Below, piece after piece: positions 27,471-35,724 of a DNA stretch of 64,000 nt. The position numbers and the translations under genes were made by a program. The stretch lies in sequence record OZ335960.1. One strand, given 5' to 3'. Position 1 is the stretch's first letter. Each line of letters begins with the position of its first letter. The notes beneath the pieces are model-generated. The model was given only the letters and a program-made list of their open reading frames with translations, made no database searches and had not been told where the DNA came from. The stretch is from a phage.

Positions 27471-29567
27471 TTATCCTTGAACGAACTTGTAAGGCATGTT
27501 TGCAATATCTATGCAAGACGCAATAATTCCAAGAGATGATTCGACTTTCTGTTTAACATTTGATGAAACAAATGATGCAAAATCAACTCTGTCTTCTATT
27601 TCAATATCACCTGTCATTGCAACTACTTCACCAGTTTCCATTAGACGGTCACCGTCATAAATTACTGATTCGGTGAGTTCTTCCGTAGTCATAACTTCAG
27701 CTTGAATGAGTTTTGTATTATTAGATGTTGTTCCGTCATTATTAGAAGCATCAGTTATTTTATTAACTTTGACCATCAATCCGCGTGGTAGAATAACTTC
27801 AGCTTCTGTTGCTATTCCGAGACTTCCTGGATATACAACATTAACTTTATGAGCTCCATCAATTGCCCATCCTATTTGAACTTTAACGTATTCAGGATTT
27901 TCTTTATACGCTCTTATTTCATTTGGATTAATAGTTATTCCTTCTTCATTTTTATCAACTGTCAATTCATTACGAGCTTCTGGTTCTAAAAGACCAATAC
28001 CAGCATGTGTAATTCCAAAACGTCCAAAAATGATAGGAGTTAAAGAAGTAGATACAAAATTTCTGAAATAGAACACTTTATTTTTAACTAGTGCTTCGTA
28101 TATAGGAGCAGTCATACTTTGAGCACGATAAACTGTAATGCCTTCTGGTATACGGTCACCATTTTCAAAAGCTGAATCTAAGTTATTTATAGCAGATTCA
28201 ATTTCTTTTTCACTCATTACATCATATCGTTCTGGATTGTAGCGTCCTAAAAGAAGATTATTGATGTCAGTATATCCTGAACCGCAATACTCTCTAATGC
28301 CGCGCTTTTGTGATGGAGTATATTTAGAACCATCACGGGCAATAGTAATATCAATCATTGGACCTGCACCAATTCCAGAAAAGCTATAAATCATTCGTTT
28401 GAGGAATTTAGTTTTTGCTGCGTTCCAGGAATTTTTAGTTATTTCTTCCCAGACTTCATCTGGCTGTCCTTTACGGGTTTTATTATGTTTATCAAGCCAA
28501 TTATCTTTATATTCTTCAAAGAGTTGATTAACAGCTGCTGCGTATTTCTCCAAACATTTTATTGAAGTAGTTGGTTCATTTTTAATCGCATTAAGAATTA
28601 CATCTTTAATCTTTTCAGAAACTTCATCAACCTCACTTTTTGAAAAGAATTTATAATCATAGTGAAGTTCATCTGCAGTTCCTTCGGCAATGATTTTTGC
28701 TGCCTTAGTTTTAGAAGCTAGTGAATTAATTCCAAGTTTCATTTCTTCCGCTTCGGGAATTAAAGGAGCGGTAGCAGGTTTATTGAAATTAGCTGCGGTA
28801 GATTCATACTTCTGGAATAATTCACTTTCAAATCTAGAAGATTCCAATGACTGACTTTGCGCAATTGCTCTACGGGAAATTTTAACTTTAACTATTACAG
28901 CTTGATCAGAACGTTTATCGTTTTCTTGCGCAATAGATGCTGCAATTGCCTCATTTTTAGTTACTTGAGCTCCAGTATCTTTATTGATATAAACATCACC
29001 GACCTTCGATTCAACTTTAGTAAAGAGCTCGGTACTAATTTCAGGAACTCCTGGAATGTCTTCTAATGATACATTTTTGCGATGTATAAGAATATATGCA
29101 TACTTTTTATCGTAATCCCAGAGTTCCTTAAGAAGGACGTATCTGCCACCTGAACGACTACGGATAAGTCTATCAGCAATAAGTTGAATTTGACGAGCTT
29201 GACCAGCAGTTTTAGACTTAAGAATACGGAGCATGCAGGCATCAATTTTATACTGACGCATCGTCTGCATCGCAACAGTAAAAACTGAATTGATGTAATT
29301 AATTGGGCTTGGACCGAGACCTTTTAATTTAGCAATTGAACCTTTGGCAGTTAATGTAAAAGGAACAATATGCATCATTTTATCGCCCATTTTTAAATCG
29401 CGATTAGTATCACCTCCAGATGTATAGGTACATAAACGAAAGCCTGGTTGTTCAATTGCGTCATCAACATGAACTGAAAAAATTTGCGGTATTTTCTTCT
29501 TTGGATTTAAGTTTGTAATCGGAAGAGTAGTATCTTCGTCAAATAATTCTGTAATGAGTTCCATCAT
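27471..29567 (-). CDS. alt: Alt, NAD-protein ADP-ribosyltransferase (head-packaged)
   Basis: 698-aa ORF; ART motifs VYRAQ, FVSTSL, ATEAEVILPRG; located next to DNA ligase gene 30 as in T4; TATAAATA late-promoter box directly upstream. Confidence 0.85.
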   Translation of the reverse strand: MMELITELFDEDTTLPITNLNPKKKIPQIFSVHVDDAIEQPGFRLCTYTSGGDTNRDLKMGDKMMHIVPFTLTAKGSIAKLKGLGPSPINYINSVFTVAMQTMRQYKIDACMLRILKSKTAGQARQIQLIADRLIRSRSGGRYVLLKELWDYDKKYAYILIHRKNVSLEDIPGVPEISTELFTKVESKVGDVYINKDTGAQVTKNEAIAASIAQENDKRSDQAVIVKVKISRRAIAQSQSLESSRFESELFQKYESTAANFNKPATAPLIPEAEEMKLGINSLASKTKAAKIIAEGTADELHYDYKFFSKSEVDEVSEKIKDVILNAIKNEPTTSIKCLEKYAAAVNQLFEEYKDNWLDKHNKTRKGQPDEVWEEITKNSWNAAKTKFLKRMIYSFSGIGAGPMIDITIARDGSKYTPSQKRGIREYCGSGYTDINNLLLGRYNPERYDVMSEKEIESAINNLDSAFENGDRIPEGITVYRAQSMTAPIYEALVKNKVFYFRNFVSTSLTPIIFGRFGITHAGIGLLEPEARNELTVDKNEEGITINPNEIRAYKENPEYVKVQIGWAIDGAHKVNVVYPGSLGIATEAEVILPRGLMVKVNKITDASNNDGTTSNNTKLIQAEVMTTEELTESVIYDGDRLMETGEVVAMTGDIEIEDRVDFASFVSSNVKQKVESSLGIIASCIDIANMPYKFVQG

Positions 29568-29587
29568 ATCCTCTCTAGTGTTTATTC

Positions 29588-29595
29588 TATTTATA
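29588..29595 (-). promoter_or_regulatory. Late promoter box TATAAATA (alt, minus strand)
   Basis: Forward TATTTATA ~25 bp upstream of the alt start on the minus strand. Confidence 0.55.
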
Positions 29596-29600
29596 AAATT

Positions 29601-29618
29601 AAAGGCCCGAAGGCCTTT
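29601..29618 (-). terminator. Hairpin AAAGGCC-CGAA-GGCCTTT between the 62-aa ORF and alt
   Basis: Perfect 7-bp stem with tetraloop; A/T-rich flanks. Confidence 0.55.
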
Positions 29619-29805
29619 AATAATCTATTGGTAAGAGAGTACGATATATTTCAAACTTTGGGCCTTTTTCATAGGTATCAAATGTTTCTGTGAATTTATT
29701 ATAAGCATATGCATCTATAAATTCAATCATAATTTGTGACACAGAAGTAGAAACATCTCCACCTTCTTTTTGAGCCACGACAATTGTTTCTAAGTAAGCT
29801 TTCAT
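29617..29805 (-). CDS. Hypothetical small protein between gene 30 and alt
   Basis: 62-aa ORF overlapping gene 30 stop by 4 bp. Confidence 0.5.
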   Translation of the reverse strand: MKAYLETIVVAQKEGGDVSTSVSQIMIEFIDAYAYNKFTETFDTYEKGPKFEIYRTLLPIDY

Positions 29806-31262
29806 AGACCAGTTACCTCATGAAAATCACCAAATACATCCTCGAATGTATTAGCTTTAGTTTTATCTTCACGTAAACGAATCGCAATCGGAAGAAATAA
29901 TTTAACGTAATCAGTGCGGCCATCAGATTTTAACCAACCGTTGCATTCGCACTCTAGAATTTTTCCAATATAATAATTTTGGTTTTCCATAATGCGAGTA
30001 CGGTCAAGTTCATGCGATTTTACACCGGCTTTATCTTTTAAGCCTGAACCAGCATTTACTTTAATTTTTCCACACTCTGATTCAAGAATAAATCCACCTG
30101 CTTTAGTAGGGTCTTTACGGTGAGGATAAATTCCTACAATTTTTAAATCAACATCAATTACTTCTTTAAATTTATAAAGATTTTTTGAACGAGCATTTTC
30201 CCACAATCCATCGGTATTTTTGAGAATAATACCTTCGAGACCTTGGTCAATATACTTTTTATAAATTACCTTAGCTTCATCTAGGTTATTTACTACTTGG
30301 TTTTCAATTAAAATTACTTTATCATATCCTGATGTCATTTGTTCTAGTTTAGAAAACCGTACATCATATTTTAAACGAAACGCCGGAAGACCGTATATTT
30401 CTACTAACGGGACATAATCCCAGACCTGAAACTTCATGCATTGAGCTTCTTTTTCTGAAATAGTTCCCTTTAAAGATTTATTGGCAATTCCATTAGAAGC
30501 AGTACGAGATTCAGCTACTTCGGCAAACTCTTTAGCTTTACTGATTTCAGGAGCATCAAAAAGAAAATCTAGACCTTCTGGCTCTTTTTCAACTTGCTCA
30601 TGGTATACCAATTCGCCATCGATTAACACGCCTTCTGGATGAATCTGGCGGGCTTCAACAGTCATTTTGATTAACTCTTCCTTAAGAAGATCTAATCCTA
30701 GATATTCATTACCAGCTCGTGATAAAAGACGAACATCATCTAATTCATCGCCTCGGACTTCAGCAAAACACCGAGCTCCATCTGCTTTTAACTGTGCAAA
30801 GGCTGGAAATTTGATATTCTTATTAATGCCCTTTTCATCATAAGAACTTGCCAGCATTTGAGGTTGTTCAGGAATTAAACCTGGCCAAACTTTATTTGCA
30901 ATAGATACTGAAGCACCACATTCAAGATCTCGCATCATAACTCGACGCAAAACTTCAACATCATCCTTTTTACCATCAGTGATATATCCAGTTAATTCCT
31001 CAATTGCAGCATTTCCAGTCAATTTCCGAGTAGCTAACGTGAATTCAATGAAGTCAAGCATATCGGTAATAGTCAGCATTCCAAAACTCTGGGTAGCAAT
31101 ACCAGGTTTAGGCCATTTCTTGATATAATACTGTAACCCACGAGAATAAGTCAGACGATATACTCGTTTAAGCAATTCATTATCTTTATTCTTTTCAAGA
31201 ATTGCTTGCTTCTGCTTAGTTGATCCAATAGATGCTATTTCATTCAGAATTTTAAGAATCAT
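29802..31262 (-). CDS. 30: ATP-dependent DNA ligase gp30
   Basis: 486-aa ORF; adenylation motif KADGAR; T4 ligase is 487 aa as I recall. Confidence 0.95.
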   Translation of the reverse strand: MILKILNEIASIGSTKQKQAILEKNKDNELLKRVYRLTYSRGLQYYIKKWPKPGIATQSFGMLTITDMLDFIEFTLATRKLTGNAAIEELTGYITDGKKDDVEVLRRVMMRDLECGASVSIANKVWPGLIPEQPQMLASSYDEKGINKNIKFPAFAQLKADGARCFAEVRGDELDDVRLLSRAGNEYLGLDLLKEELIKMTVEARQIHPEGVLIDGELVYHEQVEKEPEGLDFLFDAPEISKAKEFAEVAESRTASNGIANKSLKGTISEKEAQCMKFQVWDYVPLVEIYGLPAFRLKYDVRFSKLEQMTSGYDKVILIENQVVNNLDEAKVIYKKYIDQGLEGIILKNTDGLWENARSKNLYKFKEVIDVDLKIVGIYPHRKDPTKAGGFILESECGKIKVNAGSGLKDKAGVKSHELDRTRIMENQNYYIGKILECECNGWLKSDGRTDYVKLFLPIAIRLREDKTKANTFEDVFGDFHEVTGL

Positions 31263-31528
31263 TGCTCATCCTTCAAGGTTTGGTTTACAGCTCTATTATA
31301 AATCAATTCATCATTAAGCTCAGGCAAAGACCTATGATATGTAGTTCTAACTTTATTTCCTTGCATCCAGTGCTTGACGTAAATGAAACCTTGCTCTACA
31401 CATTTTTTAAAAATTCGTTCGTCTTTTTGAGCTCGGAATTCCGGATTGCATCTAAAAAATTGATTTACGTGACCATAATCACGTGTAGTATTACCTTCAT
31501 TTTCATAAATAGTGTGAACGACAAACAT
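31259..31528 (-). CDS. Hypothetical protein (T4 30.1 position)
   Basis: 89-aa ORF, translationally coupled to neighbours. Confidence 0.6.
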   Translation of the reverse strand: MFVVHTIYENEGNTTRDYGHVNQFFRCNPEFRAQKDERIFKKCVEQGFIYVKHWMQGNKVRTTYHRSLPELNDELIYNRAVNQTLKDEQ

Positions 31529-32367
31529 TAGAATGCTCCTTGGAAAATATTATCACCGCTAGTAGGTCTATTATACAAATACTCTATGCCACCAGGTTTA
31601 ATGTAGTTCCATGTCTGAAACGGATGTGTCTGATATGGATGATATAGATGATTATAAGGATTAAATCCAGGCGTTCTCCAGGTAGTGTTCCAAGGAAAAG
31701 AATCGTTTTTAACCATCTTCTCAATTAAATCTTTTATAGCTTTTTCACTATCAAAATTTTCTTTATTTTCCTTCGGTGAAAAAAGCTTATTTTCTACATC
31801 ATTCCATGTATAAACTCGCTGAGCAGTTTTTGGAATATTGTCACGCTCTCCTCGAGCCATCCAATAAACCGGAACATTTAATATTTCACTCGCGTGGTCG
31901 CAGTGGTGAGCGAGATCGTCAATATAACAAATTACGTTATATTTCTCTTTTGCCTTTTTGAATAACTCTTCTTTTGAAGAATCATGGCCACACATCATTA
32001 CTTCTGAGAAGGCACCAGGAAAAAGAGCATTCAAATTAAATTGACGATTCAGCAGAGCGTCAATAGAATCACCCAATGCTGTAACAGCTACAAAATTATA
32101 ATCTTCTTTTAATTTGTTAATTACACACAGGGCATCTTTATACGGAGACAAGTAACGAATAAAATCTGAACGATTGTATTTTTCAATTAGCTTGACACCG
32201 AGTTCTTCATCACAATTAAAGAGTTTACCCGGAGAAATAAATTTCTCATCTTGGATCATTTTTAAAATATGTTCTAACGGAAGATTATATTTCTGAGCAA
32301 AATAAGGAAGTCCTGATTGCCAGCTTAAACATACTCCATCAATATCAGTTAAAATAGTAGGCTTCAT
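31528..32367 (-). CDS. HAD-superfamily phosphatase-like protein (T4 30.2 position)
   Basis: 279-aa ORF; N-terminal HAD motif I ILTDIDGV (DxDG). Confidence 0.7.
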   Translation of the reverse strand: MKPTILTDIDGVCLSWQSGLPYFAQKYNLPLEHILKMIQDEKFISPGKLFNCDEELGVKLIEKYNRSDFIRYLSPYKDALCVINKLKEDYNFVAVTALGDSIDALLNRQFNLNALFPGAFSEVMMCGHDSSKEELFKKAKEKYNVICYIDDLAHHCDHASEILNVPVYWMARGERDNIPKTAQRVYTWNDVENKLFSPKENKENFDSEKAIKDLIEKMVKNDSFPWNTTWRTPGFNPYNHLYHPYQTHPFQTWNYIKPGGIEYLYNRPTSGDNIFQGAF

Positions 32368-32828
32368 AGAGAGTCTCTTAATAGGTTTAACACATCAATA
32401 AATTCAGCTTCGGTTAGTATTGTATCATCTTTTGTTAGACCACTAGCCATGCTGTGCTTCAAAACTTTTCCTTTCGAGGCTTGTAATGCATCACGAAAGC
32501 CCTTGTTTTGGAACGCTGCTTCAAAATATGCATTTGTGTATAATTCTTTCCACGCCGGAGAGTATCTTGAAAACGGAACTCCAAGCCAAAAGAGGGTCCC
32601 ACGGTCCTGAGCTCTAGCACAAGACCTTCCAGCTTGTTGGGCGGCAAGCCCGGATAACCCAAATATACGACGTTGCTGTTCAACATTTTTCACCTTGCAT
32701 CCTTGGAGGAATCCTTCGAGACCTCCAAATTGAATACCATCCATAACGAAAGGCCATTGGGCGAAATTACTTAATGCGCATGATGGCCATTTAAAATTGC
32801 TTCTTATCTCTAGCTCAGACATTTTCAA
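32364..32828 (-). CDS. NADAR/YbiA-like (DUF1768) protein (T4 30.3 position)
   Basis: 154-aa ORF; LSNFAQWPF...DGIQFGGLEGFLQGCK resembles the YbiA/NADAR signature (E. coli YbiA FSNFAAWP...DG..W...EHYFQAQK, from memory). Confidence 0.6.
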   Translation of the reverse strand: MKMSELEIRSNFKWPSCALSNFAQWPFVMDGIQFGGLEGFLQGCKVKNVEQQRRIFGLSGLAAQQAGRSCARAQDRGTLFWLGVPFSRYSPAWKELYTNAYFEAAFQNKGFRDALQASKGKVLKHSMASGLTKDDTILTEAEFIDVLNLLRDSL

Positions 32829-33021
32829 TACTTATAATTTCAACATCAGCCCAATGACCATAGCAAGGAAGACGAAATTCAACTGGCCAGTTAGGGTCCT
32901 TTTCTAATATAATAGACTCAACTCGTGGTTCTTCATGTTCATCAGTATATGGATTTTTATCTGTTACTTTATATGTGACCTTAATGTACTGAATTCCAAA
33001 AATCTTATTAATTATATTCAT
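32815..33021 (-). CDS. Hypothetical protein
   Basis: 68-aa ORF in 30.x cluster. Confidence 0.5.
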   Translation of the reverse strand: MNIINKIFGIQYIKVTYKVTDKNPYTDEHEEPRVESIILEKDPNWPVEFRLPCYGHWADVEIISIENV

Positions 33022-33215
33022 ACTAATTCCTTTAATCCGTAAATAGGAGATAATTCATCGCCCATACGAAGGTCTTCATTTCCATCTACCCAGGAAACAA
33101 TATAAGCCTCTTTTATTTGAATACCACTCCATTTAAATGGAGGTAGAACCTTAGAAATTAATCCAGGTATACCAACTCCCTTTAATTCAACAGTTTGACC
33201 TAAAAAGAATTTCAT
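33018..33215 (-). CDS. Hypothetical protein
   Basis: 65-aa ORF in 30.x cluster. Confidence 0.5.
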   Translation of the reverse strand: MKFFLGQTVELKGVGIPGLISKVLPPFKWSGIQIKEAYIVSWVDGNEDLRMGDELSPIYGLKELV

Positions 33216-33502
33216 TAGAACCTCATCTGAAAACCGTGCGATTTAACATTACCGCCGCCAATATCAGAAATGTTAATTTCACGCGCAATTGAAGGGTCAA
33301 TGTCAATTTCACGATTGAGTTTAGTGATAGCTAAAGTATCGCGCCCATTTACAGTACGGAATTCTAAAGGACATACTACATTAACGTAGTTTTTAATCGA
33401 TTCGCTAGTAGGTTGCAAATGAGCAGGAAGGTCTTTAGGCGCCTTAGAGAAAACTACTTCGCAGAAGTTTTTACGAGTATCAAAATAAGTAGTCATAAAC
33501 AT
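33215..33502 (-). CDS. Hypothetical protein
   Basis: 95-aa ORF in 30.x cluster. Confidence 0.55.
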   Translation of the reverse strand: MFMTTYFDTRKNFCEVVFSKAPKDLPAHLQPTSESIKNYVNVVCPLEFRTVNGRDTLAITKLNREIDIDPSIAREINISDIGGGNVKSHGFQMRF

Positions 33503-33517
33503 AGTATTTTCCTCAGT

Positions 33518-33545
33518 AAGGGGCCGAAGCCCCTTATTTTATTTT
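33518..33545. terminator. Hairpin AAGGGGC-CGAA-GCCCCTT with T-tract on the plus strand
   Basis: Sits between minus-strand ORFs; T-tract orientation suggests it stops plus-strand (antisense/late) read-through. Confidence 0.5.
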
Positions 33546-33909
33546 AAATATCAAATTCGTTAAGAACTACATCAAAGATTGCTTCAAGATGCTCAGGTTT
33601 AGCTTTGTTACTCAGAATATGACGAATCCAAGTTTTAACCAGAAGTTTACGATTGACGCCATTCCAGCAAGGATGAGTCCCTAAATCACGTTGACGGAAA
33701 TCATCATCCAGAGCGATTTTAAAAGAAGAACCTTCTTTCGTGATTGAAACCGTGATGCCATTTTCAAATCGCATATAAACGTAGTTAGGAGTCATATACT
33801 GTTCAATTTCGCATACTGATCCATTTTGATGTTTCCAAAGGCAGATAGTATCAATAGAACCTGCAATACCATTAGAAACATATTTACGTTCAAAGTTGAT
33901 GTAGTTCAT
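33544..33909 (-). CDS. Hypothetical protein
   Basis: 121-aa ORF with own early promoter upstream. Confidence 0.6.
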   Translation of the reverse strand: MNYINFERKYVSNGIAGSIDTICLWKHQNGSVCEIEQYMTPNYVYMRFENGITVSITKEGSSFKIALDDDFRQRDLGTHPCWNGVNRKLLVKTWIRHILSNKAKPEHLEAIFDVVLNEFDI

Positions 33910-33946
33910 TTTTATTCTCCGAGATGTTTAATTGCGGTACAGGTAT

Positions 33947-33975
33947 ATAATATCATATCCTGTACCAAAGTAAAC
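33947..33975 (-). promoter_or_regulatory. T4-type early promoter (GTTTAC - 17 bp - TATTAT)
   Basis: Minus-strand -35 GTTTAC and -10 TATTAT upstream of ORF 33544..33909. Confidence 0.65.
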
Positions 33976-33977
33976 AA

Positions 33978-34310
33978 TTATTTTACTACTTTCCAGTGCT
34001 GCATGTCAAGTTTACCAACTTTTTTCATCTTCTCAATTAAGCGTTCGGCACGTTGGCGAGCTGTAACATAATACCATTCACCCAATTCATTTTGTTCAAT
34101 TTTTCCAACGATTACTGTATTCAATTCATAAATCCAACCAGTAAAGAAATTATGAACTTGAATTGTAAAGGTGAAATCTGTTCCCATACCTTCTGTTGTT
34201 TCTACTTCAATAATATCACCTTCAACTGCCATTAAGAACCACATAGTTTCATCATATTTACCATTGAAGCATTTAGTTTTAACTGTAGCGTTCAGATTAA
34301 TCGTTTTCAT
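33978..34310 (-). CDS. Hypothetical protein
   Basis: 110-aa ORF; early promoter and AAGGAG SD upstream. Confidence 0.6.
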   Translation of the reverse strand: MKTINLNATVKTKCFNGKYDETMWFLMAVEGDIIEVETTEGMGTDFTFTIQVHNFFTGWIYELNTVIVGKIEQNELGEWYYVTARQRAERLIEKMKKVGKLDMQHWKVVK

Positions 34311-34337
34311 TTTATTCTCCTTTGTTTGTGTAAGATA

Positions 34338-34367
34338 ATACTATCACAAAGGAACCATACTGTAAAC
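34338..34367 (-). promoter_or_regulatory. T4-type early promoter (GTTTAC - 18 bp - TAGTAT)
   Basis: Minus-strand AAAGTTGTTTAC...TAGTATTAT then AAGGAG SD and ATG of ORF 33978..34310. Confidence 0.7.
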
Positions 34368-34383
34368 AACTTTGTGCAATCTT

Positions 34384-34410
34384 TGGAAAATAAAAAAGGA
34401 CTCCCGAAGG
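34384..34410 (-). terminator. Terminator after the 30.9-position ORF (minus strand)
   Basis: Minus strand AGGACTCC-TTCG-GGAGTCCT followed by TTTTTTAT. Confidence 0.7.
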
Positions 34411-34420
34411 AGTCCTCAAC

Positions 34421-34639
34421 TTATGCTTTCTGCTTACCAAAACGAGAAGCATCATCTCGAAGAACCGCACGTGCTCGGCGCATGATCTTCTCAACAGTTT
34501 GATTGATACGAGAGTTCGACCCACGCTTGTAGCCAGCGCGTTTAGAATCACCAACTTTCTTTTCAACTGCTTTCTTTGCTTTAGCTTGTTTTGCCATTAT
34601 AAATTCTCTTTTAAATGAAAATGCAGGACTTATTGGCAT
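34421..34639 (-). CDS. Small basic protein (T4 30.9 position); true start probably internal ATG giving MAKQAKAKK...
   Basis: 72-aa ORF as tracked; Lys/Arg-rich; followed by hairpin plus T-tract terminator on minus strand. Confidence 0.5.
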   Translation of the reverse strand: MPISPAFSFKREFIMAKQAKAKKAVEKKVGDSKRAGYKRGSNSRINQTVEKIMRRARAVLRDDASRFGKQKA

Positions 34640-34992
34640 TGCCTGCGCAAGCCCTCAAGGGGAACATAGGTTTTGTATATTTACCGACAGGATAACCATA
34701 AACCCGTCAACATACCTTATAGCTCTTATCTGTTGCACACCGTTAGCTTAAAGGTTCCGGGTTCGATTTCTCGAGGATAAGATATATACTGATGGATATA
34801 TAGGCCTTGAGGCGTACTCCCGATTAGCCATCACCTCGGGGTAGCATGCACTTGCCGCTATAAAATAACATTCAAGAGGTACACCGTAAAACTGCCGGGG
34901 TCTTAAAACTATAATGATTCGCAAATCATTAATCAGACAGTTCGACGGCTCCTCGTTTTAACTTCACACTAAGGCAGTGACTCTCCAATAAA
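34640..34992. other. 352-bp ORF-free, GC-elevated, inverted-repeat-rich segment between rIII and the 30.9-position ORF; candidate structured RNA or gene remnant
   Basis: No ORF above ~25 codons on either strand; stops in all frames; ~44% GC by hand count against visibly AT-rich flanking DNA; several local and long-range inverted repeats. Confidence 0.5.
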
Positions 34993-35241
34993 TTACTTCA
35001 GTGTTACCACAAAGTGACGAACTGCTTTTCGTGCAGCAGAAGCCAGTGGCTTAGCATATTTAAGTTCATCTTTTTCCTGAAGCTCAGCAGCTAATGCAGT
35101 TTGAGCAGGATTCAGATGTTTGAAATAACGCAGGATTTCAAGAGCTTCGGCTTCAACATCAATAGATGCGCCATAGTTTTCGTGACCATTATTCCATGCG
35201 TTTCGTTGCAGTTCAAGAGCGTGTTGTAATTGTTTAATCAT
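34993..35241 (-). CDS. rIII: rIII lysis-inhibition accessory protein (putative)
   Basis: 82-aa ORF immediately downstream of gene 31 on minus strand, the T4 rIII position and length as I recall. Confidence 0.6.
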   Translation of the reverse strand: MIKQLQHALELQRNAWNNGHENYGASIDVEAEALEILRYFKHLNPAQTALAAELQEKDELKYAKPLASAARKAVRHFVVTLK

Positions 35242-35380
35242 TTAAAAATTCTCGTTAGAGATTAAAACTCGGTAGTCACGTTCTTCTGAATTTCATCTTC
35301 TTTCGACAGATCTCTCAGTTGTAGACTACCACATAGAATTGTTCGGTTAACTTATTATTCCGACACCCAATTCATATTAT

Positions 35381-35388
35381 TATTTATA
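35381..35388 (-). promoter_or_regulatory. Late promoter box TATAAATA (rIII upstream, minus strand)
   Basis: Forward TATTTATA just after the gene 31 stop, ~140 bp upstream of rIII. Confidence 0.4.
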
Positions 35389-35724
35389 TCACTTATAAAG
35401 ACACGGAATAGCTTTATAGTGACAGGTAACGAATTTTTGTTTAATTTCTTTTGGCTGCTTAAGACCCAGAGCTACAAAAGGATGCGGAACGTTTCGAATT
35501 TGACCAACTGGAAGAGAAGTCAAATCACCAACTTCGCAGAAACCTTCAGGAACATCAGGACCAACGGAGTGAACTACACACAGTTCAGGAACTTCACCTT
35601 GAACACGTTTACCGATAATAAGTCCTGATTCTGTAACTTCTTCATCACCGGCTTGTGCAGGTTCAGAAACTAAAATAACATATTCACCGACAGCACGAAT
35701 TGGTAGCTGTTGTACTTCAGACAT
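35389..35724 (-). CDS. 31: gp31 co-chaperonin (GroES-like)
   Basis: 111-aa ORF (T4 gp31 length); mobile-loop-like region. Confidence 0.9.

Follow-up and report, generated by a model that had tools for sequence, protein, structure and literature searches.

The closest described counterpart of the locus analyzed here is gene 30.3 of phage T4, which was renamed adfN, for anti-DarT factor NADAR, by Johannesman et al. (Nat Commun 2025, PMC11825919). T4 and T2 phages deleted for adfN form no plaques on DarTG1 hosts, and ectopic adfN rescues RB69, in which the native gene carries a frameshift and the encoded protein is missing the last helix (PMC11825919). Purified T4 AdfN strips ADP-ribose from DarT1-modified DNA, and the E36A and K43A variants are impaired in this reaction (PMC11825919). 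In an independent demonstration, the T4 protein hydrolyzed guanine-ADP-ribose but not thymine-ADP-ribose in vitro (PMC11125620), and hydrolysis of guanine-ADPr in vitro was demonstrated again in 2026 (PMC12945103). In a T4 transposon screen, 30.3 was dispensable on E. coli K-12, while insertions in the gene were lost on DarTG1 (bioRxiv 10.1101/2025.11.20.689424). A preliminary description of the DNA analyzed here had proposed that a NADAR enzyme could protect the phage against DarT-type toxins; such protection is published for T4 AdfN, with deletion phages failing on DarTG1 and the transposon screen in agreement. That a deletion phage would be restricted by DarTG hosts holds for DarTG1 but not for DarTG2, because AdfN is effective against DarTG1 only (PMC11825919). 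By contrast, the suggestion that expression of the protein might rescue DarT toxicity is contradicted by the T4 data: AdfN fails to neutralize DarT1 when cells are uninfected, and its rescue of phages outside the T-even group is weak (PMC11825919, PMC11125620). Thus, the simple picture of a free-standing glycohydrolase is incomplete. AdfN of T4 is fully effective only during T-even infection, and a missing phage factor has been proposed by the authors (PMC11825919).

Two bacterial NADARs provide further points of comparison, i.e., DarG1, the antitoxin of DarTG1 (e.g., the Geobacter lovleyi NADAR, 8bat), and E. coli YbiA (2b3w; PF08719), which has been linked to hydrolysis of riboflavin intermediates and to swarming and does not counteract DarT1 in vivo (PMC11125620). 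Here, we compare these proteins with the 30.3 protein of a T4-like phage and analyze the HAD-motif protein encoded by the overlapping gene 30.2. Very probably, 30.3 of this phage is the ortholog of T4 AdfN and an anti-DarTG1 NADAR, and 30.2 encodes an unrelated, NT5C-like HAD phosphohydrolase that is not functionally paired with it. The present analysis establishes, for gp30.2 and gp30.3 alike, protein identity, fold, motifs and genomic context; the anti-DarT function of 30.3 was already published (2024-2025).

Gene order and junctions around gene 30

The window, i.e., the whole 64,000-nt stretch of DNA analyzed (record OZ335960.1), derives from a Tequatrovirus and shares ∼97% nucleotide identity with many T4-like phages by megablast. 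A megablast search with positions 31200-33100 returned 655 phage records, the best 97.5% identical, almost all of them from T4-like phages that infect Escherichia, Shigella or Yersinia. The T4 reference has the same gene order, i.e., alt, alt.1, 30 (DNA ligase), 30.1, 30.2, 30.3 and 30.4 onward. The region consists of closely packed minus-strand ORFs, transcribed in the order 30.4, 30.3, 30.2, 30.1, 30, alt.1 and alt. Because transcription follows the minus strand, 30.3 and 30.2 lie upstream of the ligase gene; their placement downstream of DNA ligase in the preliminary description is true only in plus-strand coordinates. Both ORFs exist on the minus strand at the coordinates given in that description, and the NADAR-like signature and the DIDGV motif that it quoted are present. 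It was also right that the phage encodes an ADP-ribosyltransferase, which is the product of alt (27471-29567, minus strand).

Around the two genes of interest, gene 30 (29802..31262, minus strand) encodes an ATP-dependent DNA ligase according to the ORF list and the T4 annotation. Gene 30.1 (31259..31528, minus strand), between 30.2 and the ligase gene, encodes a DUF3045 protein of 89 aa (Pfam PF11243, 1.6e-63, and T4 annotation). Directly upstream of 30.3, gene 30.4 (32815..33021, minus strand) encodes a protein of 68 aa and was assigned from the T4 annotation, the junction sequence and a match to phrog_2042. Direct reading of the sequence shows that the 30.3 stop and the 30.2 start share the four letters ATGA (32364..32367, minus strand), a geometry of translational coupling, and an AAGAG Shine-Dalgarno-like element is located 7 nt upstream. 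At the 30.2/30.1 junction, the overlap is 1 nt (TAATG) and is preceded by AAGGAG. The start codon of 30.3 lies in an 8-nt overlap with the end of 30.4 (ATGTCTGA) and lacks a good Shine-Dalgarno sequence. This overlap together with the poor Shine-Dalgarno sequence makes translational coupling of 30.3 to 30.4 likely. A scan of positions 29500-35500 for promoters and terminators was no different from shuffled sequence (22 promoter-like sites versus 22.3 expected), and no terminator was seen within the run from 30.7 to 30; because the scan matches shuffled sequence, it is uninformative on regulation. Very probably, the region encodes two unrelated enzymes whose genes are packed into an early transcription unit of compact, T4-like design.

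Gene 30.3 and its relation to known NADARs

Gene 30.3, i.e., adfN (32364..32822, minus strand), is predicted to encode a phage-type NADAR ADP-ribosylglycohydrolase of 152 aa. The ORF 32364..32828 of the preliminary description exists; however, it is a mechanical ORF starting at a TTG, and in the T4 annotation the gene starts with the ATG at 32822. The assignment of 30.3 as a NADAR in that description is supported by the following comparisons. First, the protein is identical to T4 gp30.3 at 148 of 152 residues (97%) and shares with T4 AdfN the position between 30.4 and 30.2, the length of 152 aa, the residues E36, K43 and H123, and a complete C-terminal helix. The two proteins differ by four substitutions (K11 for R, C68 for Y, F104 for I and M125 for I), none of which is catalytic, and the codons for E36 (32715-32717), K43 (32694-32696) and H123 (32454-32456) are present in the sequence. 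The C-terminal helix is intact: the protein is not truncated, the final 27 residues match those of T4, and the helix is modeled at residues 138-151. Second, the protein contains the NADAR signature ALSNFAQWPFVMDGIQFGGLEGFLQGCK, and in an alignment of 44 30.3 homologs, no substitution is seen at E36, K43, H123 or in the ALSNF motif. The profile of the 30.3 family matched YbiA (2b3w) in the PDB with E = 0.003, with the alignment spanning the motif in which the catalytic residues lie, and YbiA was the sole sequence-profile match in the PDB. Third, the AlphaFold (AF2) model of 30.3 has a pLDDT of 94.6 and a pTM of 0.88, and the top three Foldseek matches in the PDB are the NADAR structures 2b3w (6e-5, TM 0.67), 8bau, a Phytophthora NADAR, and 8bat, the Geobacter DarG1-type NADAR; all other matches had E > 1.

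Among curated families, the protein matched Pfam PF08010 (Phage_30_3) with E = 6.9e-69; its score of 230 bits exceeds the cut-off of 36, and the match spans the whole model. Membership of the NADAR/DUF1768 family, which the preliminary description had expected, is not direct: a search of PF08719 with the window protein gave no match at E ≤ 1, while five of the 44 30.3-family homologs matched PF08719, the best at 1.5e-7. Searches of NCBIfam and PADLOC returned no match for gp30.2 or gp30.3, and single-sequence searches of the two proteins against PDB sequences returned only noise. These results support a placement of 30.3 in a separate phage family, PF08010, for which profile and model comparisons indicate a link to NADARs at the level of family profile and fold only. 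In line with this, YbiA is the best structural match of 30.3 and shares the SNFA...E..FQ..K motif; however, the two proteins are only 18% identical.

The comparison with DarG1 is instructive in other respects. DarG1 and 30.3 have in common the NADAR fold and the Glu/Lys catalytic pair, and specificity for guanine-ADP-ribose is common to DarG1 and the phage NADAR as determined for the T4 protein. The third catalytic position, by contrast, is His in phage 30.3 (H123), Asp in DarG1-type NADARs and Glu in YbiA-type NADARs. Moreover, phage 30.3 is a bare core that lacks the N-terminal extension of DarG1, and unlike DarG1, the T4 protein gives uninfected cells no protection from DarT1. Finally, whereas DarG1 is part of a toxin-antitoxin system, no DarT toxin gene adjoins 30.3, the neighbors being 30.4 and 30.2, and PADLOC returned no match. 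The lack of an adjoining DarT gene makes 30.3 an antitoxin-like orphan, in keeping with what is published for T4.

Activity and phenotype are experimental for the T4 ortholog and are transferred to this phage through the identity of 97%. We suggest a model in which the host toxin DarT1 would ADP-ribosylate guanines in replicating phage DNA and in which 30.3, as a minimal NADAR-fold N-glycohydrolase, would cut the guanine-ADP-ribose bond, thereby restoring the base and allowing replication to proceed. E36, K43 and H123 would serve as catalytic residues, full activity would require the C-terminal helix, and 30.3 would function as a phage-borne orphan antitoxin. Alternatively, this NADAR might serve mainly to hydrolyze immune signals or soluble derivatives of ADP-ribose, or to reverse ADP-ribosylation by the phage enzymes Alt, ModA and ModB, rather than to repair DNA. 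The alt gene is located 3 kb from 30.3 and is transcribed in the same direction, and guanine-ADPr on RNA is likewise a substrate of NADARs in vitro (PMC12945103). Nevertheless, we regard this alternative as very unlikely, given that direct genetics and biochemistry tie T4 gp30.3 to DarT1-modified DNA and that T4 transposon data show 30.3 to be nonessential without DarTG1. The supplementary sheet of the transposon study that was taken as the DarTG1 comparison, because it follows the RnlAB sheet and because of its 30.3 value, gives a log2FC of −7.25 for 30.3 (bioRxiv 10.1101/2025.11.20.689424), and alt insertions have no DarTG1 phenotype in it. Activity of AdfN on protein-linked ADP-ribose is not reported in the AdfN/NADAR literature consulted.

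Gene 30.3 also contains an out-of-frame internal ORF, 30.3'. Most close T-even relatives keep this ORF open at 74-75 aa, some have a shortened version, and distant relatives lack it; its sequence is poorly conserved, and its status as a real gene is unsupported.

Gene 30.2 and the HAD superfamily

The ORF 31528..32367 (minus strand) is T4 gene 30.2 and encodes a protein of 279 aa that is 97% identical to T4 gp30.2. Its N-terminus is MKPTILTDIDGVCL, in which the DIDGV motif occupies residues 8-12. The preliminary description had recognized a HAD-motif protein in this motif, and all four catalytic motifs of the superfamily are in place, i.e., D8-x-D10-G-V12 (motif I), T96 (motif II), K132 (motif III) and D150-D151 (motif IV). 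Among 38 gp30.2 homologs, no variation occurs at D8, D10 and K132, and conservation is at least 90% at T96, D150 and D151. Comparison of the same 38 homologs separates a conserved core of approximately residues 1-195 from the remaining ∼80 residues, which vary and are missing in many homologs. The AlphaFold model is consistent with this division: the core (residues 1 to ∼195; 31783..32367, minus strand) is confident and is modeled with a C1-type helical cap, and the C-terminal tail (residues ∼196-279 plus the stop codon; 31528..31782, minus strand) is predicted to be disordered, with pLDDT < 50 at residues 225-235 and 239-279. The tail nevertheless holds a semi-conserved GGIEYLYNRPT, and a G-I-E-Y-L-x-x-Q-P-T-A motif recurs in homologs.

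The window protein itself had no match in Pfam or NCBIfam, including PF00702 and PF13419, and its sole family assignment is phrog_420, which has no annotated function. Sub-threshold matches to PF00702 were detected in 10 of the 38 homologs, the best at 3.5e-4. Foldseek with the gp30.2 model gave 128 matches at E ≤ 1e-3, and the best 50 of these 128 all belong to the HAD superfamily; the top match is mouse cytosolic 5'(3')-deoxyribonucleotidase, cdN (2jao, 3e-8), and a deoxyribonucleotidase-like protein of S. epidermidis (3bwv) is also among the leading ones. Based on motifs and modeled fold, gp30.2 is firmly predicted to be an enzyme of the Rossmannoid HAD fold.

The profile of the gp30.2 family also had cdN as its best match in the PDB, although this match is weak (E = 0.1). 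The profile alignment pairs DvDGvlvkWqSgL with cdN NMDGVLADFESGL, following the pattern D-x-D-G-V...W-x-S-G-L to N-M-D-G-V...F-E-S-G-L. The aromatic residue aligned between gp30.2 and cdN/mdN is one that we take to be the base-stacking residue in cdN/mdN. At E ≤ 1e-3, the gp30.2 family comprises 1334 representatives, of which a distant member (P0349) passes the cut-off of Pfam NT5C (PF06941) with 26.4 bits versus 24.8 and another (P0340) matches the PHROG family "5'-3' deoxyribonucleotidase". Compared to the NT5C family (cdN/mdN 2jao, 2i7d and 1q92; S. epidermidis 3bwv; PF06941), gp30.2 has an identity of 14-21%, falls under every curated threshold and possesses the extra disordered tail of ∼80 aa. 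An affinity of gp30.2 to NT5C 5'(3')-deoxyribonucleotidases is likely on the basis of these profile and fold comparisons. Because its nearest relatives are 5'(3')-deoxyribonucleotidases, dephosphorylation of a mononucleotide or small phosphoester is the most likely chemistry of gp30.2. Most likely, the protein would function as a Mg-dependent HAD phosphohydrolase with a C1 cap, and its putative substrate would be a (deoxy)nucleoside monophosphate or another small phosphoester of this kind. Our literature search found no paper naming gp30.2, and a search of the literature on phage deoxyribonucleotidases found nothing on gene 30.2. T4 transposon data show that insertions were tolerated at 72 of 72 sites in 30.2 (bioRxiv 10.1101/2025.11.20.689424), and the log2FC of this gene in the sheet taken as the DarTG1 comparison is −0.12 (p = 0.61; same source). 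The gene can be dispensed with in the laboratory and, judging by this sheet, is unneeded against DarTG1.

Neighbors of gene 30.2 and the dependence of AdfN on T-even infection

Gene neighborhoods were compared in 77 viral loci with a 30.2 homolog and 80 loci with a gp30.3-family NADAR, in which six-frame ORFs were scanned with profiles of the 30.2 and 30.3 families and with the neighboring proteins of the window; with the T4 reference, the 30.2 set is counted as 78 loci. Starting from 30.2 homologs, the ligase gene is adjoining in 72 of the 78 loci. This arrangement would fit a gp30.2 that acts as a DNA-end 3'-phosphatase, in the manner of PNKP or the phosphatase domain of T4 Pnk, and readies nicks for the adjoining ligase. 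However, adjacency that is conserved inside one virus family is weak evidence for a shared function of gp30.2 and ligase. In addition, gp30.2 is modeled with a helical C1 cap, and such a cap in HAD enzymes usually limits access to small substrates. The best sequence and fold matches are also capped deoxyribonucleotidases and not the capless Pnk domain (1ltq, 5uj0). We therefore consider a DNA-end phosphatase unlikely and favor a small-substrate phosphohydrolase related to NT5C.

The neighborhoods also bear on the idea that HAD protein and NADAR form a two-enzyme module, in which gp30.2 would be the T-even factor for AdfN or would process the ADP-ribose that AdfN releases. The ATGA overlap, the need of T4 AdfN for T-even infection with the missing factor proposed for it (PMC11825919), and the proximity of the two genes in several Straboviridae lineages, with a NADAR within 6 kb of 30.2 in 38 of the 78 loci, all speak for such a module. 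However, from the side of the NADARs, just 22 of the 80 loci have a 30.2 homolog within 6 kb, and in seven genomes the 30.2-ligase pair is kept while the NADAR lies ∼50-70 kb away on the same contig (e.g., L022/L144 and L018/L147). Moreover, in the sheet taken as the DarTG1 comparison, 30.2 insertions are not depleted under conditions in which 30.3 insertions are lost, and the AdfN reaction does not require a phosphatase step. The neutral 30.2 insertions together with the co-occurrence counts indicate that the HAD protein is not the "additional T-even protein" of AdfN, and on these two grounds we rejected gp30.2 as its missing partner; a two-enzyme module in either form is extremely improbable. 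The translational coupling to the HAD gene noted in the preliminary description is, thus, borne out as sequence geometry but not as function: 30.2 and 30.3 overlap by ATGA, yet they are not a functional pair.

Instead, the genes that 30.2 accompanies are those of ligase and replication, not the NADAR gene. More distant 30.2-like genes are likewise found among replication genes: Pfam scans around three of them detected a clamp-loader-like ATPase, a DNA polymerase III alpha-like fragment and an exonuclease in two of the three loci; in this small sample, the scan of the genes surrounding the third gave nothing. One 30.2 homolog is fused to a DNA-polymerase-like domain.

A second neighbor, 30.4, has a measurable signal. 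In the sheet taken as the DarTG1 comparison, its log2FC is −1.79 with an adjusted p of 0.014, and among the inspected rows of this sheet it is the only gene besides 30.3 that is significant (bioRxiv 10.1101/2025.11.20.689424). The text of that paper does not comment on this depletion. The 30.4 product could be the cofactor that explains the dependence of AdfN on T-even infection, but we give this possibility little credence. Most simply, the depletion reflects lowered expression of 30.3 from insertions in 30.4.

For annotation, these findings mean that the coupled HAD phosphatase 30.2 should not be described as anti-DarT. Rather, gp30.2 represents a widespread, near-core and uncharacterized NT5C-like phosphatase of T4-like phages that is encoded beside DNA ligase, which makes it a target for enzymology of modest interest. 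With respect to NADAR enzymes, the locus adds nothing new, and its significance lies in the phage carrying an intact copy of a characterized counter-defense gene. We predict that this phage should form plaques on DarTG1 hosts, unlike RB69-type phages with a truncated copy.

Gene 30.4 and the DarTG1 transposon signal

Gene 30.4 (32815-33021, minus strand) is the upstream neighbor of 30.3, the adfN ortholog. In the sheet of the T4 transposon screen that we take as the DarTG1 comparison from its position after the RnlAB sheet and its value for 30.3, insertions in 30.4 were significantly depleted (log2FC −1.79, adjusted p 0.014), 30.5 had a log2FC of −3.0 that was not significant, and 30.6 and 30.7 were neutral (bioRxiv 10.1101/2025.11.20.689424). 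The running text of that paper does not mention 30.4. In the window, the end of 30.4 and the start codon of 30.3 lie in an 8-nt overlap, and the junction sequence has no clear Shine-Dalgarno sequence at the 30.3 start. Because of this arrangement, the depletion in 30.4 is likely a polar or translational-coupling effect. Less probably, the 30.4 product could act as a cofactor.

Two further features lie nearby. First, a 75-aa ORF in another frame within 30.3 (32459-32686, minus strand) is the annotated 30.3' of T4. Most close relatives among the T-even phages keep this frame open over 74-75 aa, and in some it is shortened to 53 aa; distant NADAR genes do not have it, and its amino-acid conservation is poor. 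Second, the interval between 30.6 and 30.7 contains a GC-rich hairpin, AGTAAGGGGCCGAAGCCCCTTATT, with a T-run after it (33515-33538). The terminator scan called it terminator-like on the plus strand, i.e., antisense to 30.6 and 30.7.

The gp30.2 tail and distant 30.2-like genes

The disordered tail of gp30.2, the HAD-fold protein, contains the motif GGIEYLYNRPT (residues about 259-269; about 31561-31593, minus strand), which many homologs repeat in the alignment as G-I-E-Y-L-x-x-Q-P-T-A. Its pattern of hydrophobic, acidic, aromatic, Leu and aromatic residues resembles SLDFLF and SLDFLY, the sliding-clamp-binding motifs at the C-terminal ends of T4 DNA polymerase and gp55. Because many homologs lack the final aromatic residue, the tail as a candidate sliding-clamp-binding motif is only a lead.

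Among distant homologs, P0258 (591 aa) combines a 30.2-like HAD domain with an N-terminal region that is DNA-polymerase-like (phrog_24943, 1.7e-34). Others adjoin genes for an AAA ATPase resembling clamp loaders, a DNA polymerase III alpha-like fragment and a 3'-5' exonuclease (viral loci L077, 4142-5071; L078, 4019-4582 and 6788-8238). This fusion and these replication-type neighbors point to a role in DNA replication or nucleotide supply.

Broken and relocated NADAR genes in T4-like phages

The 30.3 copy of the window is intact. Among the gp30.3 relatives that databases list for T4-like phages, many are truncated or carry fused parts of other T4 small genes matching Pfam PF06919, PF11097 and PF06019 (P0107, P0113-P0117, P0156 and P0199; locus L013, 5636-6001). 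This suggests frequent breakage or recombination of the gene in nature, as in RB69. In several other T4-like genomes, a gp30.3-family NADAR lies about 50-70 kb from the conserved 30.2-ligase pair (same-contig locus pairs L022/L144, L018/L147, L030/L152, L035/L142, L073/L134, L042/L114 and L067/L109). Thus, the NADAR has moved, or has been separately acquired, within the T4-like family.
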